DNA of 20,000 nt from an uncultured virus (IMG/VR IMGVR_UViG_3300042273_000539) (IMGVR_UViG_3300042273_000539); one strand, 5' to 3'. Numbered from the stretch's first letter, positions 1 to 16,572 are shown. The notes: a model not told the origin generated them from the letters alone. Translations and numbers: made by a program.

Positions 1-187
1 CAAAATCATCTTCCACTAAATGAGCAGGTATTTCAACTATAGCGTAAATTTTTGGTTCTACATTCCACTGTTTTCTGTATAAATTCCCTGCTTTTCTTGT
101 TTCTGTTTTGTTCTTACACTTGAAGAAACAAAAACTTGAAGGTGAAATATAACCAGTATCAAAACAAAGACCATAAATTTTATCCAT
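1..187 (-). CDS. Hypothetical protein, 3' end runs off the window (MDKIYGLCFDTGYISPSSFCFF...)
   Basis: ATG at 187 preceded by GAGGT Shine-Dalgarno and promoter copy 1; frame is open to the window edge; not in the ORF track. Confidence 0.75.
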   Translation of the reverse strand, partial: MDKIYGLCFDTGYISPSSFCFFKCKNKTETRKAGNLYRKQWNVEPKIYAIVEIPAHLVEDDF

Positions 188-222
188 TTTTTACCTCTTT
201 TCTTTTGTGATACCTCATTATA

Positions 223-582
223 TCATTTTTTTAGTTTCTTGTCAAGTAGGTCTATCAAATGGATATTATCTATTCTCCTAAAACCACTATAACCCCCATT
301 TAGAACGCTTAAATAACCCTGCCATATCTCTTTTATGTTTATTACACCCCCTATTATGATTGCAATTGGTAAAGCAATAGTAGCAAAAAGTTTACCTAAT
401 ATATTAACTTTCGTATAATACGCAAATCTTTTTTCTTCCGTTTCTTTTAGAAAATATCTTCCATTCTTAAAAATCTTTATTCTAGTAGGCAAAAGTTTGT
501 TATGGTCTTTTCTTGACAACTTTACAATAGCATAACCATTTTTTAACCAATATTCATCAGCAGATATTTTTTTAGTATCCAT
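223..582 (-). CDS. Hypothetical protein with one hydrophobic segment
   Basis: 119-aa ORF, AAGGA RBS, follows promoter copy 2; C-terminus LDKKLKK* is encoded by repeat copy 1. Confidence 0.8.
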   Translation of the reverse strand: MDTKKISADEYWLKNGYAIVKLSRKDHNKLLPTRIKIFKNGRYFLKETEEKRFAYYTKVNILGKLFATIALPIAIIIGGVINIKEIWQGYLSVLNGGYSGFRRIDNIHLIDLLDKKLKK

Positions 583-618
583 TGTTTCATCCTTTCATAC
601 CATCATCATAGCATTTTT

Positions 619-990
619 TTAGTTTCTTGTCAAGTAGGCAGAAAATTCAGCTTCAAATTCTCTCATTCTATTGTTCTTGTGCGTATTAAGAAGTGGTAAA
701 AGCCTTTCCTTTTCTTTGCTAAAGATATTCCATACAATCCTTAAAACATTAGCCATATTTTCATAATCCTCAAAACAGACATCTTTATAATAAAGATAAT
801 AACTATCCTTCACGTTTATTCTCAACAGAAGATTGCCTATCTCTATCTTAGCCCACGATTTAAAGACAGTATTAGCTTCAAATACGGAAGTTTTTACCCC
901 TTCTTTTCTACACGCTATACATATATCTATCACTTCGTGCGCTAGTTTGTTTAGTTCTTTATCAAAAAATCTTTTTTCTTTTCTTGTCAT
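619..990 (-). CDS. Hypothetical protein
   Basis: 123-aa ORF, GAGG RBS just after promoter copy 3; C-terminus LTRN* is encoded by repeat copy 2. Confidence 0.8.
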   Translation of the reverse strand: MTRKEKRFFDKELNKLAHEVIDICIACRKEGVKTSVFEANTVFKSWAKIEIGNLLLRINVKDSYYLYYKDVCFEDYENMANVLRIVWNIFSKEKERLLPLLNTHKNNRMREFEAEFSAYLTRN

Positions 991-1034
991 AACGCCTCTT
1001 TATTATAGCATTTTTTTAGTTTCTTGTCAAGCCC

Positions 1035-1130
1035 CTATCCAAGATGTTTAAAACATAAAATGACCCATATTGCCATAAGAATAGCAAATACACCTACTAA
1101 CCACAACAACCATATACCTAACTGTACCAT
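1035..1130 (-). CDS. 31-aa single-pass membrane peptide MVQLGIWLLWLVGVFAILMAIWVILCFKHLG
   Basis: Manual translation; the ATG lies inside repeat copy 4, whose unique A>G variant creates AAGGA 9 nt upstream; ORF fills the whole inter-repeat unit. Confidence 0.65.
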   Translation of the reverse strand: MVQLGIWLLWLVGVFAILMAIWVILCFKHLG

Positions 1131-1145
1131 TTTTTTAGTTCCTTG

Positions 1146-1316
1146 TCAAGATGCTACAATGCCCATTTTTTCCAGAAAATTTTCCGTGTCCTCGTTTATT
1201 TGGTCTATTGCATTATAGATTGCTTCAAACTTACCCGCAACATCAAACGGTCGTATCACTTCTATTACTTTCATAAACGATTCCCACTTTGCAGAATTGA
1301 TTGCCTCTTGATTCAT
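1146..1316 (-). CDS. 56-aa hypothetical protein MNQEAINSAKWESFMKVIEV...
   Basis: Manual translation; shares the leader GATGGCATGACAAGGGGGCTGT-ATG with the ORFs starting at 1741 and 2526; stop TGA is within TTGACA of copy 4. Confidence 0.8.
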   Translation of the reverse strand: MNQEAINSAKWESFMKVIEVIRPFDVAGKFEAIYNAIDQINEDTENFLEKMGIVAS

Positions 1317-1363
1317 ACAGCCCCCTTGTCATGCCATCATTGTAGCATTTTTTTAGTTTCTTG

Positions 1364-1741
1364 TCAAGCCCCTATTACTTTAAAAGGTTTGTCCCATTTC
1401 CCGATATGAATATCTACATACCACCCCACGTCAAAATAATCTACCATAACATTAGAGTTGTCATGATTGCCAACCATCATAGCATTTCGGCAAGCCTGTA
1501 ATAGTTCAGCGTTTCTACCCGTAAAATGACTATCAATATGATATACATTCACGTCGTGCCTATCCCTATTTGGCATATCTTCAAGAAGATTCAAAGAACA
1601 TTCCTGTATTGTCATAACAATGCTACTTCTATTGCGAACGCTATATGTTGCCTTAATCTTCACATCTGGAAATTGTTCCGCAAGCACTTTTTTGACATTT
1701 TCCACTAATACCTTTTTTCGTTCTTGGTTCATGTAAGCCAT
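1364..1741 (-). CDS. Conserved phage-type protein with DNSNVMVDYFDVGWY motif (resembles LPD25/LPD29-type 'DxMxDYFD' polyvalent-protein domains)
   Basis: 125-aa ORF, AAGGGGG RBS, own promoter (copy 6); family resemblance from recall only. Confidence 0.75.
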   Translation of the reverse strand: MAYMNQERKKVLVENVKKVLAEQFPDVKIKATYSVRNRSSIVMTIQECSLNLLEDMPNRDRHDVNVYHIDSHFTGRNAELLQACRNAMMVGNHDNSNVMVDYFDVGWYVDIHIGKWDKPFKVIGA

Positions 1742-1796
1742 ACAGCCCCCTTGTCATGCCATCATTATAGCATTTTTTTAGTTTCTTGTCAAGCCC

Positions 1797-1889
1797 CTAT
1801 CTGCCGAACTCGGCAAGGGCAATACTTTCCGCTAGTTCATACGGATACCCTAAACTAATATACAAGTCTATTATTTCTTCAAATGTCAT
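1797..1889 (-). CDS. 30-aa peptide MTFEEIIDLYISLGYPYELAESIALAEFGR
   Basis: Manual translation; fills the unit between copies 7 and 6; ATG is 6 nt after the -10 hexamer TAAGGT. Confidence 0.65.
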   Translation of the reverse strand: MTFEEIIDLYISLGYPYELAESIALAEFGR

Positions 1890-1928
1890 ACTAGCACCTT
1901 ACCATTTTTTTAGTTTCTTGTCAAGCCC

Positions 1929-2015
1929 CTAAAATTCGTCATCATCAAAGAAATAGTCGTCAAAATCGTCAAAATCGTCAAACTCAACAGACACAATACT
2001 TTCCCATACTTCCAT
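1929..2015 (-). CDS. 28-aa highly acidic peptide MEVWESIVSVEFDDFDDFDDYFFDDDEF
   Basis: Manual translation; GAGGT RBS; follows promoter copy 8 and stops just before copy 7. Confidence 0.7.
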   Translation of the reverse strand: MEVWESIVSVEFDDFDDFDDYFFDDDEF

Positions 2016-2109
2016 TCAAGAACCTCGCTTCATGCCATCATTGTAGCATTTTTTTAGTTTCTTGTCAAGTAGGTAATGTTTCCACCATTTGGATACACCA
2101 CCCCTACTT

Positions 2110-2162
2110 AGCCATCGTCAGTACCAGTATCACTGGCAGACCGCCCGAAAGCGGTTTCGGCT
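2110..2162 (-). ncRNA. Type II hammerhead ribozyme
   Basis: Minus strand AGCC-GAAA-CCGCU(UUCG)GGCGG-UC^UGCCAG(UGAUA)CUGGUA-CUGACGA-U-GGCU: GAAA, GUC cleavage triplet, CUGANGA core and all three stems are present; predicted cleavage between 2139 and 2138. Confidence 0.92.
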
Positions 2163-2181
2163 TATGTAGGATACCATTTTT

Positions 2182-2526
2182 TTAGTTTCTTGTCAAGAGG
2201 GACAAAGGGCGGATAAAGTCTTGTGATACAACACGCACAGAACGCCCGTTTTCTATACTGATTACAGCTTTCCCCTTGTCGTGTCGGTATTCCTCTACCT
2301 TGCAAGGAATAAGCACACCTTTCCCGCCTTTGGTATGATAGCACGCAATACTTCCCACAGGACACAATTCTTCCGCATTTGTCACAGGGACACCATACGC
2401 CTTTACTCTATAATCAGGTTTTACCCTAGCATAACTCTTTTTTCCAGTAGGACATACGTGTACCCCTAGTGGCTCATTACGATATTCTCCAGCCTTAACT
2501 TGTTCCAGTAAACCATAGTCAGTCAT
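2182..2526 (-). CDS. Hypothetical protein
   Basis: 114-aa ORF with the shared leader and AAGGGGG RBS after copy 10; ends LTRN* in copy 9. Confidence 0.8.
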   Translation of the reverse strand: MTDYGLLEQVKAGEYRNEPLGVHVCPTGKKSYARVKPDYRVKAYGVPVTNAEELCPVGSIACYHTKGGKGVLIPCKVEEYRHDKGKAVISIENGRSVRVVSQDFIRPLSLLTRN

Positions 2527-2987
2527 ACAGCCCCCTTGTCATGCCATCATTATAGCATTTTTTTAGTTTCTTGTCAAGCCCCTAATCGGCAGAACCGACT
2601 AACGATTGACTCGCTCAAAATACCATTTTTTTAGTTTCTTGTCAAGCCCCTCTTGCCTTGCTTGGCAAGCGGAAACGACACGCTTAAAATACTATTTTTT
2701 TAGTTTCTTGTCAAGCCCCTTGCAAGTGTTTTCCTTGCAAGGCGTTGACCGCTTCATACCATTATTTTATCATTTTTTTAGTTTCTTGTCAAGCCCCTCG
2801 CACGTATTTTCTTATAAGGAAAACAGGCGGGCGTGCGTGCGGGCGCACGCCCACGCGATATATCATTATAGCATTTTTTTAGTTTCTTGTCAAGCGGGTA
2901 AAAAATTTTCGTAAATCCTTATAATATATAGAGTTATTTATAATGTTTATTAGGGTATATACAAAAGTTAGAGGGGATTTAAATAGG

Positions 2988-3014
2988 CAAAACCCCTATA
3001 TAATAGGGGTTTTG
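2988..3014. repeat. Perfect 12-bp inverted repeat CAAAACCCCTAT-ATA-ATAGGGGTTTTG (possible terminator or DNA signal)
   Basis: Seen directly in the AT-rich noncoding gap 2895-3102. Confidence 0.7.
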
Positions 3015-3102
3015 AGGCACTTTTTTTGTGGTGGTAGTGCGACACCGATATAGGTATTTTTTAGAAATTTTTTGCTTTTTTTATAAATTTTAGAAAAAAT
3101 TT

Positions 3103-3672
3103 TTAGAAAATTTCAAAATTTTCCCAAAGAACTTTTTTCCCAGCTTTGTCTTTTTCGTAATCAAACAATCTTTGTATTCCAGTTTCAACATGGTAAAAAA
3201 TTACATCACTGCCAGAACGAACTACACATTTTCCTTCATTATTTACTGATATTAAAACTATATGGGTTTTACTAACGAAGTTAGAATGACCCCAAGAACC
3301 TTTACCACTTTGGCTTATTTTGTATAATCTTTTTACCAACTTTTCAGCGGCTGGTGATAAATATTTTTTCTGCTCTTTCTTTAGTTTGTCAATTTTTTCT
3401 TTTTTCTCTTTTCTTTCGGCTTCATCTTCGTCAATGTCAAAATCTTTGTACTGATATTGTTTTCCGCCTACTGCCTTCATAAGTTTTGAAAACGTAGAAT
3501 AAATTTTTGCCTTACTATCCAAAGAAGGTTTATTAAATTCTTCAACCTCTTCTGGTGTTTTAGATCCTGCGTAAAACGATTTGTCATTTACTTTATACAC
3601 GTAAAGATTTTCGCCTTCCGTCCGGTGGGTTACTCTCGCCCCTACGAATGCGTTATCTTTTGTCAATTCCAT
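3103..3672 (-). CDS. Hypothetical protein
   Basis: 189-aa ORF, GGGAGG RBS. Confidence 0.85.
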   Translation of the reverse strand: MELTKDNAFVGARVTHRTEGENLYVYKVNDKSFYAGSKTPEEVEEFNKPSLDSKAKIYSTFSKLMKAVGGKQYQYKDFDIDEDEAERKEKKEKIDKLKKEQKKYLSPAAEKLVKRLYKISQSGKGSWGHSNFVSKTHIVLISVNNEGKCVVRSGSDVIFYHVETGIQRLFDYEKDKAGKKVLWENFEIF

Positions 3673-4827: not shown

Positions 4828-7800
4828 TCAACCGCAAGTAGAATATCCACAACTGCTACAAACCGTACAGCCACCCTCAAAAACCATAGTTCCACCACAT
4901 TCAGGGCATTCTGCTTTATTAGAAGAAATCATTTCTCCATCAGGTATATAATACTTCAATACCCTCGCAATGGCTTTTTGGAACGTCCCAAACTTCTTTA
5001 CTTTATTCATCTGTGCGACAATAAACTCCAATGGAACTTGATGCCTCATCAATAAAGAAAGCAATCTACACATAGAAGCATAATCATCATTAAACACCTC
5101 TGCTAAATTTTCTACTACTATCTTACTTCGCTTGCCTTCAATAAGCAAATCATATCTACTGGCTTTTTCAGCACCATCATATACCTTAACAATACTACCT
5201 TCTTTAAATCTCTTTAAATCAACTATATCATCATGATTATCTGTATAGAAGATTTCATATGGTGCGTTATTGTAAGGTGAATCTGGATTTTTACCAACTA
5301 GGACAATAACAGGTTCTTTATTAACTGTAATATCATAGATATCGCAAGGCAAGCTTTCTGGACGTTTCATAGCATTTTTCAATACCTCAATATTTCTCCA
5401 TCCATCATCTTTCTTTGTAGAAAGAATACCATCCATAGAAGCACCTTCATGAAAAGAAGTAACTCCCTTCAATCCCTTTTTCCAGGAATACATGAATATA
5501 TCTTTATATTGCTCTAGTGTAGTTTCAAAAGGCATGTTAATGGTTTTACTGATACTGTGGTCTATCCAGTATTGAAGTGCTGCCTGTATATCTATTCCTT
5601 CTGTAATAGATACATTATGGGATACCACTACATAATCAGGAAGATCATTTCCTTCTTTGTATCCTGCGTACTCTATGTATTCCAGCCATCCATCATCATA
5701 TACAGTTTGTGTTTTTGTGGTATCATCATCCTGTCTTATAGACCTATCATACTGCAAAGAGAAAATAGGCTCAATACCAGAAGAACAGTTATTTCCCAAA
5801 GACAAAGAAGTGGTGTTATGACTAACATATGAATTTGCAATATAAGTTCTTCCGTCTGGAACTTCCAAGTCTAAAGTGTAATTATTACTATCGCTTATAG
5901 CAACAACTTCATCAATAAACAATCCCTTTCCAAAATAATCATTAAGATAATCTACTTTCTCTTTTAAATCTTTTTTAATATATCTCTTTGCTCTCTCTTC
6001 TCCGATAGAGCCATATTTTTTCCAATAAATCCTGTAAGATAAATTGTTTGAATAGCTACCTTCATCAAGAGATTTATCATAAACTGAAATAGATGAATTA
6101 ATACCTACTGCTCTCATTATAATAGCTAATTGTTGAGCATTTTTTTCGGAATAAGTATCAATATACATTGTCCCTCTGCTGCTTGAACCATCACCATAAA
6201 AATATCCATCAATATAAGAAAGGATACTTTCTTTAGAAGATAATCTTACTGCTTTTGGAATTTCTATTCCTAATGCTTTATTTTTTATTAATCCATTAAT
6301 TTCTAAAAAGTTAAGTAATCTTTGAGAAGAAATATACACACTGTCACAATTTTTACCATTATCAACAACTTTAGAATTCCAATTAAATAAATTCTTAATC
6401 AGTTCAACAACTTCTATTGATTCATTTGTTAAATGATTTAAGTTAATTCTTATGCCTTTGTTGTGAGTGCTACCATCTGCATTATAAAGTCCTAAAAAGA
6501 AAGCAAATTCAGCGGTAATCTCTTCCGGTAATCTTATATCTTTTTCATTAGGGTGTTTTGCATAATCTGGAAGTATAAGCCGTTTATTATCTTTCTTTTC
6601 ATATCCTCCAATTTTATAAACTATATTATCTCCAACAGATAGGTCTTCAAGTTTCTTCCAGTCAAACGAAGTTCCATTTAACACTTTAAACTTATGATTT
6701 GGAGTTCCTTCTAAATTTACACCACTCTTTGTAGATATTTTTTTAGTAGGTTTAAATCCATTTATAAAAGTATTCCTTATTCCTTCGTACTTTTCATATT
6801 CGTTTAATGCTCCAAGATTTTCTTGTGGTATCCAAGTTCCATCTTCATAGTTTTTATAATTAGGAATTAATTCTTCCAATGTGTATAAACCATCGTTAGT
6901 TGATACAATACTTTCTGGAACAAGACATCCGGTTGGTGCCGTGGTTAATATACCAATGTTTCTTAACCCGACTTCTTGAATTCTTTTCTGTGTTCCTTCA
7001 CTTAACCTTGTAATAAATCCAGAATGCCCAATATGACTATCATAAGCAGGAAACGAGCCTTTTTGTAATGCTAAATCAACAGAAGCATTATACGCACTTT
7101 CTGCTAGGACATTTCCCATTTCATATACAAAATCTACACTTTCTTTACTTCCATATCTAATCTTTAATTTCAACAAAGCATCGCCAAGTCCTGTAATTCC
7201 AAGACCAATCCTTCTCCATGCTTTTGATATTTTCTCAATTTTTTCAAGAGGATAATCAGTAGCATCCAAGACATTATCCAAGAACCTTACTCCAAGTCTT
7301 GCCATGTTTTTAAATTCTTCCCAATCAAATTCTGCATTCTCTGTAAATTGATTTTTTACCAATTTAGAAAGATTGATAGAAGATAGACAGCAAAGAGAAT
7401 AAGAAGGCATTACGATTTCCATCAGTTATTGTTAAGCTCTTTATCTTAACTCTCCGATTTTCACCGGAGTGTCGGACTATATCTTCACCCATAATATGGG
7501 GCAGGGCGCTCGTGGGAAAATTACCTACCGTTCTGGTATCGTTTCCTAGTCTCTGAACCTTGCAGAGTATTCCTACTCTACCTTGGATGCTGATTAGCAT
7601 ATTCTTTTTCAAGAATTTAGCTTTCCAGCAGTTCACCCTGTTTTTTACTTGAGGCAAGATTATTTACCACAAGGATTGCATCTATCTACCTTAAAAGCGT
7701 GAGAAGCATTGTTTCCTGCTTCCACTGTATCAAGGAACAAAGCACCTGGCTCATTATACCACCAAGCCTGTTTAGTCATTCTTTCATACAAATCTTTTGC

Positions 7801-8580
7801 TCTTACAGTTTTATACACCTTTACTAAAATAAGATCTGTGTCGTCAACAGTATATCCTTGGTCTATACAATATTGTAAATCAAAGTTGTTTTTAACCCAT
7901 TTTGTTTTACAATTTTCTTCGCTTTCAAATTTCATAAGAGGGAATACCAAATCCCAGTCTTCATCATTTTCAACTGCTCTCATAAACTCATCAGTAATAC
8001 CTACTGAAATATTAAATTGAGTAAGTTTATTATTCTCTCTTCCTTTCTTATATTCAATAAATTCTTCAATATCTGGATGGTCTACATTAAGGATACAAAT
8101 GTGCGCCCCTCTACGACCACCTCCTGTATGTATAGCTTTAGCAGAAGTATCAAATACCTCTATAAAACTCATAACGCCAGAACTTTCTCCGCCTTTGCTA
8201 ATCAATGCGCCTTTAGGACGAAGTTTTGAAGCGTTAAATCCAACACCTCCACCCATTTGACCGATGATAGCATCTTCGCTTACTGGCCCATAAATGCCAG
8301 GCATTGAATCCTCTAAATCAATAGTAAAACAGTTGTTGTAGTTTTTCATTCTGGAATAAGGTCTAGCATTTGCCAATATTCTTCCCGCTGGGATAAATTT
8401 ACCAGAAATCATAGCTTGATAGAAATACTCTTGCCAAATGTTTTTTAAATTATCATCCGGTTCTACAGACGCTATTTCTTCTGCTACTCCTTTTAAGATT
8501 TCTTCTACTGTTTTTTCTCCGTGAAGAGCATATTTTCTAAAAAATATCTCCCTTGAAATATCCTGTTTAAATTCAAACAC
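4828..8580 (-). CDS. nrdJ: Class II (B12-dependent) ribonucleotide reductase; exon 1 8580-7666, exon 2 7419-4828; contains an intein (about 1168-aa precursor, about 797 aa mature)
   Basis: Motifs PAGRILANA, NCF, GGGVG, GGGRRGA, FNISV, EPG, joined NPCG^E, CCLSSINL, RRIGLGITG, TAPTG^T, SSGIEP, ISKTIN; C-terminal TSCPD-like region and CPECG...CSSCGYSTCG zinc ribbon; no beta subunit nearby. Confidence 0.93.
5815..6927 (-). mobile_element. Intein with LAGLIDADG homing endonuclease (371 aa) in NrdJ
   Basis: APTG|CLVPES...TPNHKF...LGLYNADGS...IDGYFYGDGS...DLEV...YIANSYVSHN|TTSL: Cys1, block B TxxH, two LAGLIDADG motifs, terminal His-Asn, +1 Thr. Confidence 0.96.
7420..7665 (-). ncRNA. Group I self-splicing intron (246 nt, probably subgroup IA2, no homing endonuclease)
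   Basis: 5' exon ends in U (GGU) and intron ends in G; P1 CUUGUGGU/GCCUCAAG with U-G pair; P3 CAGGGUG/CGCCCUG; P AACUGCUGGAAA, Q AAUCAGCA, R GUUCAGAGACUA, S AAGAUAUAGUCC; P9 CUCCGGU-GAAA-AUCGGAG; removal restores NPCGEI in frame. Confidence 0.95.
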
Positions 8581-15970: not shown

Positions 15971-16531
15971 TTATTCCTTTCTTTTGCTATTAAAAAAATT
16001 ACTTTTTTTAACTGTGTAGCCTAACATATTTCCCCTTTTCTTTCCAACTTCTTTTGTTTTATTAAGAGTACAAGAACTATCAGTATCGCACATAATCAAA
16101 GTAGCATTATTTATAATACAGTTTTCTAAAATGCAATCAGTAAAGGAGCCTCCGTGTATCACACAGTTTTTAAAGGTACTGCCAAACCCAGAGCCATTTA
16201 CTATTATTTCACTACTCTCCAATAAAGAGTTATCAATTTTTTTAAAATTACCAAACGAATTTAACATTATGCTACCTTTTGTCAAAGAAACATATGGCTT
16301 TTTAAGCATACTTTTTATTTGACAATCTATCATAAGGCATCTTTTCATTATAGCATTAGTAGGGATAGTTGTTTTAAAAAATATAGAGCCTTCGCAAAAT
16401 ACGGCATCTATCCTGTTAGTCCCTTTTAAAATCCAATCTCTTACAAATTGATTAGTAAAAGAGGTGACATCTTCAGGGTCATAGTTAATGAGTTTTATAC
16501 TCTTAATGTAAGGTAGTATTTGTTCAAGCAT
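15971..16531 (-). CDS. Hypothetical protein with a short pentapeptide/beta-helix-like repeat; probably leaderless
   Basis: STFKNCVIHGGSFTDCILENCIINNATL; ATG is 5 nt after TATAAT with no Shine-Dalgarno. Confidence 0.75.
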   Translation of the reverse strand: MLEQILPYIKSIKLINYDPEDVTSFTNQFVRDWILKGTNRIDAVFCEGSIFFKTTIPTNAIMKRCLMIDCQIKSMLKKPYVSLTKGSIMLNSFGNFKKIDNSLLESSEIIVNGSGFGSTFKNCVIHGGSFTDCILENCIINNATLIMCDTDSSCTLNKTKEVGKKRGNMLGYTVKKSNFFNSKRKE

Positions 16532-16536
16532 ATCTT

Positions 16537-16565
16537 ATTATATTATTTTTTTAGTTTTTTGGCAA
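16537..16565 (-). promoter_or_regulatory. sigma70-type promoter TTGCCA-17-TATAAT
   Basis: TTGCCAAAAAACTAAAAAAATAATATAAT; spacer shares AAACTAAAAAAA with the array repeat. Confidence 0.8.
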
Positions 16566-16572
16566 ATAAATT

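Follow-up and report, generated by a model that had tools for sequence, protein, structure and literature searches.

Genes and features at the locus

The window, that is, the whole stretch of DNA analyzed in this study, is 20,000 nt of DNA from an uncultured phage, and all coordinates below are those of the window. Its G+C content is about 32%, and every long ORF in it lies on the minus strand. The PHROG matches in the window included a tail protein, a ribonucleotide reductase and a NinI-like phosphatase. The ribonucleotide reductase carries an inserted endonuclease-like segment. Its large subunit is split over two ORFs on the minus strand (8580-7660 and 7422-4828, in the region 4828-8580), and the insert lies in the second of them (PHROG 4645, residues about 300-462) and resembles an intein. 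An intron might account for the 240-nt gap that separates the two ORFs, in which no Rfam match was found at gathering thresholds.

From 2899 down to 208, the minus strand carries 14 copies of one sigma-70-type promoter cassette. The layout of the cassette is TTGACA, 17 nt, TG and a TATAAT-like box. The 15th copy listed for the repeat family (16528-16571) lies outside the array. Behind each cassette stands either a small ORF or some short non-coding sequence. Behind the first four cassettes, copies 14-11 (2585-2899, minus strand), only short non-coding pieces are found. Directly after copy 14 come a terminator-like hairpin rich in G+C (2854-2827) and a T-run, the piece of copy 13 has a direct repeat of TTGCAAGG, and the pieces of copies 12 and 11 hold small hairpins. 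The piece of copy 14 is kept, with a deletion, in a relative of the phage (L122). These pieces may be small RNAs or decoys.

The features examined here follow one another on the minus strand within the array. The upstream gene (2526-2182), which encodes 114 amino acids and has no PHROG match, was taken from the ORF list and is also present in contigs of relatives, including one RNA-library contig. Its stop codon (2184-2182) lies inside promoter cassette copy 9 (2196-2168; 10/12 in the promoter scan), which consists of the -35 box TTGACA at 2196-2191, a 17-nt spacer, TG, and the -10 box TATCCT at 2173-2168. A type II hammerhead catalytic unit then occupies 2162-2110, and a hairpin lies directly after it. 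The next unit downstream is promoter cassette copy 8 (2068-2040; TTGACA, 17 nt, TACAAT; 11/12 in the promoter scan). The first gene downstream of the ribozyme (2015-1929) encodes a very acidic peptide of 28 amino acids. With its stretch of D, E and F residues this peptide is extremely acidic, a trait of DNA-mimic anti-restriction proteins, and its 3' end is conserved in the relative L120.

No terminator-like site was found between the 114-aa gene and the ribozyme, and the sole site that the scan gave in 1-3300 is the one at 2854-2827. Because the stop codon is inside cassette 9 and no terminator comes after it, the mRNA of the 114-aa gene should run into the ribozyme.

A run search showed that wastewater runs and one mixed-culture run contain near-identical DNA. 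About a quarter of the sampled words of the window were present in a landfill run, and only small shares of the words in anaerobic-digester and sediment runs. Megablast, blastn and tblastn, the last with a 403-aa protein as query, gave no relative of the window in the GenBank phage set, and none was found in IMG/VR with a promoter 21-mer, a ribozyme 28-mer and the 403-aa protein, and a ribozyme 23-mer gave no match in the GTDB genomes. One site of the degenerate promoter pattern in a 1.7-Mb MAG in GTDB was set aside as a chance match, the MAG having no blastn homology to the window.

Architecture of the ribozyme

The original prediction placed a full hammerhead core on the transcribed strand at 2162-2110. 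Every part of it was found there, and its coordinates were right, as judged from the sequence, the descriptor search and the minimum free energy (MFE) fold. Read 5' to 3' on the minus strand, the unit begins with the 5' strand of stem II, AGCC (2162-2159), and the core letters GAA (2158-2156). Stem III follows with 6 bp (A-U, C-G, C-G, G-C, C-G and U-G; 2155-2150 with 2145-2140), closed by a UUCG loop (2149-2146). Position C17 is C2139, so that the GUC site is 2141-2139, and the predicted cleavage site after stem III lies between C2139 and U2138, the latter being position 1.1. Stem I has 6 bp (2138-2133 with 2127-2122), with a seventh pair, U-A, possible, and is closed by the loop UGAUA (loop I, 2132-2128). 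The core CUGACGA (2121-2115), one extra U (2114) and the 3' strand of stem II, GGCU (2113-2110), complete the unit. Stem II is open and has 4 bp.

The conserved letters of the hammerhead core are all present: C3, U4, G5, A6, N7, G8 and A9, then G12, A13 and A14, the pair A15.1-U16.1 (A2155-U2140), and C2139 as H17. The three helices meet in one junction, in which the pair G10.1-C11.1 is G2113-C2159, and the extra U (2114) stands before this pair. Loops close both stem I and stem III and stem II is open, which is the topology of type II. The MFE folds of 2162-2110 and of 2162-2070 were the hammerhead three-way junction. The MFE fold of 2165-2085 was not the hammerhead, and its stability was no better than that of shuffled sequences (z = -0.40).

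Probability of a chance match and score against Rfam

In order to judge how often such a unit would arise by chance, we used a type II descriptor that asked for stems of 4, 4 and 3 bp or more and for G-C as the first pair of stem II, and that allowed one extra base. Its sole match on either strand of the window was 2162-2110. Among 1000 dinucleotide shuffles of the window there was 1 loose match and there were 0 strict ones, that is, matches as good as 6, 6 and 4 bp, and 5000 shuffles of the richer segment 1500-3000 gave 0 matches to the descriptor. Many windows were surveyed, and a rare chance match is possible somewhere among them; comparative evidence therefore matters.

At gathering thresholds, Rfam had no match in the window. 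The covariance model RF02276 (Hammerhead_II) matches 2162-2106 with 28.3 bits, compared with a gathering score of 37. The E value was 8e-4 when 401 nt were searched and 6.5e-3 for 3.2 kb; no other credible Rfam match was found in 1-3200. Score is lost at loop I, at the tail, which in the usual case forms a pseudoknot, and at stem II, which the model aligns poorly here.

These results bear on the explanation that the unit is a chance or decayed motif, similar to a hammerhead but devoid of cleavage activity. The score under the gathering score, a stem II of only 4 bp, the lack of the canonical pseudoknot described below and the very large number of windows surveyed, among which rare chance matches are expected, all speak for it. 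Against it stand the 0 strict matches in the shuffles of both the window and the segment, and two further observations, namely that more than 100 covarying phage hammerheads in IMG/VR have the same special form, and that at least three sequence variants among relatives retain the core while the flanks diverge. Taken together, we consider this explanation very improbable. The two comparative observations are described in the following sections.

The same form among phages of IMG/VR

We searched IMG/VR with the pattern GCC-GAAAC ... GUC ... CUGANGA-N-GGC, in which stem II, the core and the extra base are fixed and stems I and III are free. The pattern was taken from the ribozyme of the window, so that agreement in the core is partly by construction, and the pairing of the free stems is the independent part of the result. 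The pattern matched at least 119 loci. Among the matches listed, stems I and III both had at least 5 bp in 110 of the 120 distinct sequences, and the sequences of these stems were quite different from one another.

The original prediction described the core as having one extra U. The U at 2114 is indeed present, but it is no oddity, since the extra base was U in 110 of the 114 sequences whose two stems both had at least 4 bp, among the matches listed. This rule indicates that the extra U is a trait of the phage group, and not a defect. High-scoring members of IMG/VR (66.9 bits) also show the same two-letter insertion relative to the Rfam model as the ribozyme of the window.

When RF02276 was run on 20 of the IMG/VR loci, 20 matches were obtained in 19 loci, 10 of them with 37 bits or more and 10 below. 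The scores of six of these loci, in which loop I is tiny and the pseudoknot is absent, were 26.2-32.9 bits, and the 28.3 bits of the window fall within this range. Because compact forms in IMG/VR score equally low, the sub-threshold score marks a compact subtype and not a false motif. These scores also show that the Rfam threshold misses compact type II forms that lack the pseudoknot.

Among the 110 members listed, many copies directly follow a stop codon and have a ribosome-binding site close behind them. No strong promoter ending just before the ribozyme was seen in these 110 members; the best hexamers scored 9/12, in one case, and 43 members were without any. As far as these sequences tell, the promoter-flanked position of the ribozyme in the window is unusual in detail, not in kind.

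Several other features were seen in the IMG/VR phages. One 112-kb contig (L021-L026, about 4.8-15.4 kb) carries a dense array of at least 13 type II hammerheads with the extra U within about 10 kb. A twister-P5 ribozyme (L005, 2039-2092; 64.9 bits) and a pistol ribozyme (L008, 2386-2453; 63.6 bits) each lie about 1 kb or less from a type II hammerhead on their phage contigs; self-cleaving ribozymes are known to occur in clusters. In four compact members without a pseudoknot (L028, L029, L070 and L079), a 3' tail RUCAG is complementary both to YUGAY in the 5' flank and to CUGAY in the core, and the first letter of the tail changes together with N7. This tail may extend stem II, or may switch the RNA between an active and an inactive fold.

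Conservation in relatives of the phage

A search of the JGI metagenomes with the promoter 21-mer gave four short contigs of relatives. Two of them (L120 and L122) were about 85-96% identical to the window by blastn, and the other two (L123 and L124) shared the cassettes alone. None of the four covers the ribozyme unit, and no other hammerhead was found in them with Rfam at E values up to 1. A fifth match to the 21-mer (L121) is an AT-rich contig unrelated to the window. In L123 and L124 the same cassette and 5' leader as in the window stand before entirely different small genes; the cassette thus appears to act like a portable expression module across phages.

We then compared Logan contigs with the window over 1800-2700, using three DNA runs (X8, X9 and X12) and one RNA run (X14). 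The differences given below are those listed; 38 further substitution rows and 7 further indel rows belong to the same table. For the 3470-nt contig of X8, all 14 gap letters and 11 of the 22 substitutions were listed. The two contigs of the RNA library X14 in this region cover 2171-2582 or promoter cassettes only, so that the ribozyme core lies outside them.

Among the listed differences in X8, X9 and X12, none within 2110-2162 falls on a stem letter or a conserved core letter. N7 (2117), the only core position that may vary, is changed from C to U in X8 and X12, and both have lost the extra U (2114). In loop I, position 2128 differs in X9 and X12 and position 2129 in X12. No covariation of the stems was seen in the lineage of the window, as far as the listed differences of X8, X9 and X12 go. 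The flank downstream differs much more. In the 3470-nt contig of X8, which carries the change at N7 and the loss of the extra U, 10 substitutions and 10 inserted letters were found in the 35 nt of 2071-2105. The alignment of X9 ends at 2118, and the letters of its loose end continue the core, with U at N7 and no extra U, and the strand of stem II; directly after this strand, the 3' flank of X9 is unrelated to the window. These comparisons suggest that the ribozyme is kept in at least three sequence variants while its 3' neighborhood changes freely.

From the core, the free stems of the IMG/VR members and this pattern of change, we think it highly probable that 2162-2110 is a maintained type II hammerhead ribozyme of a compact subtype without a pseudoknot.

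Proposed pseudoknot and region downstream of the ribozyme

In the IMG/VR members and according to Perreault et al. (2011; PMC3088659), the pseudoknot of the family starts right after stem II. Perreault et al. found that it matters for fast cleavage of the ribozymes studied there. In the window, at most 2 bp can form with loop I within 12 nt after stem II, and the ribozyme does not have the pseudoknot form of Perreault et al. Considering this role of the pseudoknot, the copy in the window could be slow.

A pseudoknot between loop I and the UAUC at 2095-2092 (minus strand) had been proposed for this ribozyme. The analysis argues against it. The match GAUA/UAUC of 4 bp lies 15 nt beyond stem II and not directly after it, as in the family, and UAUC is inside a competing hairpin of 13 bp (2103-2071) that the folds prefer. 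In addition, loop I is changed in X12 (2128 and 2129) and 2091-2092 in the contig of X8, with no compensating partner listed in either. In two relatives, four letters that match loop I do stand two letters behind stem II; this match is ambiguous, because the same letters also match the core.

The hairpin just mentioned (2103-2071, minus strand; 9+4 bp) lies directly after the ribozyme in the MFE fold. It has no T-run and was not given by the terminator scan. Its loop holds the ATG of a 7-codon ORF (MVETLPT, 2088-2065). The original prediction had noted this ORF as the only one to follow the ribozyme. It is present, but nothing supports it as a gene, and in the contig of X8 two letters of its ATG, 2088 and 2086, are different; it is probably not a gene.

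Promoter 9 and a possible outer helix

From the spacing of its elements, the transcription start (+1) of promoter 9 is predicted at about 2161. The idea that the start coincides with the 5' end of the ribozyme comes from promoter-spacing arithmetic only. Together with TATTTT of copies 11 and 12, the TATCCT box of copy 9 is the second-furthest hexamer of the array from TATAAT (4/6 each). The -10 box that cassette 9 has in X9 and X12, TATACT, is nearer to the consensus.

The position of promoter 9 leads to the explanation that the promoter exists to make the ribozyme, and that the ribozyme is a unit for a small RNA or for trimming a leader, with a functional cyclic-phosphate piece of about 23 nt or a functional 5'-OH RNA. 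Promoter 9 does have a consensus -35 box, the 17-nt spacer and TG. A start at about 2161 would leave a stem II of 3 bp, like that of the IMG/VR family, and no credible ORF stands behind the ribozyme. The layout also resembles that of the synthetic RiboJ, in which a hammerhead and a 23-nt hairpin stand behind a promoter (PMC7536230). On the other hand, the start of promoter 9 is a prediction from spacing, and the 110 IMG/VR members listed, with no strong promoter just before the ribozyme, do not share the arrangement. Relatives show little conservation behind the ribozyme, which speaks against a functional small RNA downstream, and we found no support for the earlier suggestion that the locus is a generator of small RNAs. 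We regard this explanation as quite improbable.

A second explanation arises from the sequence around stem II. The MFE folds of 2200-2070 and of 2175-2098 contain a possible outer helix, distal to stem II, between 2171-2166 and 2107-2102 (minus strand). It is made of 5 Watson-Crick pairs (2170-2166 with 2107-2103) and one wobble pair (2171-2102), and an AUA/AA internal loop separates it from stem II. The 5' strand of this helix overlaps the -10 box of promoter 9. It follows that, if the outer helix is real, the complete ribozyme would be formed only in read-through RNA. The ribozyme, then of about 2171-2102, might discriminate between promoters: the full, fast form would be present only in read-through RNA from the upstream promoters, and RNA from promoter 9 would escape cleavage or be cleaved slowly.

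Besides the folds themselves, the comparison with IMG/VR favors this explanation. Among the matches listed, a helix of at least 5 bp between the flanks, within 6 nt of stem II, was found in 6 of the 14 hammerheads without a pseudoknot (less than 4 bp) and in 5 of the 70 with a pseudoknot of at least 5 bp. However, the six cases are not independent, because three of them come from L028 (two copies) and L029, which are related, and in those outer-helix cases the 3' tail is also complementary to CUGAY of the core, so that another pairing is possible. At the site of the window alone, the outer helix is not significant against shuffles (p = 0.135). In the contig of X8, which has an insert of 3 letters on the 5' side and of 1+3 letters on the 3' side, reconstruction still gives an outer helix of 6 bp, since the inserted letters of the two sides match, but the reconstruction uses 11 of the 22 substitutions. 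In X9 and X12, the change of 2170 from C to A (RNA) would break a pair of the helix, and the 3' flank of X9 is unrelated to that of the window. The -10 box of copy 9, far from TATAAT, would fit a double constraint by the promoter and the outer helix.

Considering these points, we think that discrimination between promoters is unlikely. If it were true, the locus would act as a RiboJ-like module of natural origin and would sort transcripts according to the promoter at which they began, in a promoter array for host takeover by a phage. The possible outer helix also weakens the view, given in the original prediction, that the ribozyme is the cargo carried by a cassette of its own.

Proposed action of the ribozyme

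Phage hammerheads have been proposed to process long transcripts into gene-length mRNAs (PMC3088659 and PMC6765202). The reading that we prefer is of this kind. That is, the maintained hammerhead at 2162-2110, which stands in the promoter array of the early genes, would cleave in cis and thereby separate the upstream mRNA from the downstream RNA. Taken as a whole, this statement seems to us likely.

The action can be pictured as follows. RNA started at promoters 10-14 would run through the ribozyme and would be cut at the predicted site between C2139 and U2138. At its end, the upstream mRNA would then have the GC-rich stem III hairpin, capped by UUCG, and a 2',3'-cyclic phosphate. A 5'-OH paired in stem I would start the downstream RNA, which would also contain the second hairpin, the sequence of promoter 8 and the gene of the 28-aa peptide. 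From RNA of promoter 9, which would start at about 2161, some 23 nt would be removed. As a net result, the upstream message would be uncoupled from the gene of the acidic peptide, and both new ends would be defined and protected by hairpins.

The suggestion that the ribozyme acts as an insulator, or processes read-through RNA, agrees with this picture and describes a likely effect. The ribozyme occupies a non-coding gap of the array on the strand that is transcribed, and PMC3088659 proposes the same for phage hammerheads. That the RNA is cleaved, where its transcription starts and how cleavage affects its stability are inferences. It is established for other ribozymes that ends of the cleavage type change the stability of RNA. 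The direction of such an effect is not predictable in the host of this phage.

Comparison with known systems

Intergenic hammerheads of phages have been known since 2011, and their purpose is still described as largely untested (PMC6765202). The present finding is modest in this respect, since it is another phage hammerhead of a known type. As a single copy in a defined place, in an array of near-identical strong promoters, the ribozyme of the window offers a simple test bed for how cleavage acts on the messages before and after it.

Compared with the type II hammerheads of RF02276 (Perreault et al. 2011; PMC3088659), the ribozyme of the window has the same circular permutation, the same core letters and the same GUC site. 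The intergenic phage setting and the position on the transcribed strand are also the same, and the extra U after CUGANGA is shared with the IMG/VR examples. It differs in its loop I of 3-5 nt, in the lack of a pseudoknot after stem II and in its score (28.3 bits versus 37). In addition, its stem II has 4 bp and is possibly extended by the outer helix. In place of the pseudoknot, compact type II forms may rely on a stem II that is extended and interrupted.

In an example of a type III hammerhead from a viroid, an extra nucleotide stands between A9 and G10.1, which is the same position in the core. In the present case the extra U characterizes the whole group of type II forms from phages, and close relatives of the window lack it.

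The prophage clusters in which hammerheads flank single genes (Perreault et al. 2011; PMC3088659) have the same proposed role, the cutting of phage transcripts to gene length. In contrast to these clusters, the array of the window holds a single ribozyme, and what stands between its units is 14 near-identical sigma-70-type cassettes, not ribozymes. The ribozyme of the window also follows a copy of the promoter, and does not directly follow a stop codon.

RiboJ is man-made and was derived from the hammerhead of a plant satellite RNA (sTRSV). It stands directly before a ribosome-binding site, whereas in the window another promoter comes next and the hairpin is not conserved in relatives. The order of RiboJ, that is, promoter, hammerhead and hairpin (PMC7536230), is present in the window, and the same 5' end of the downstream RNA would be expected whichever promoter is used, as with RiboJ.
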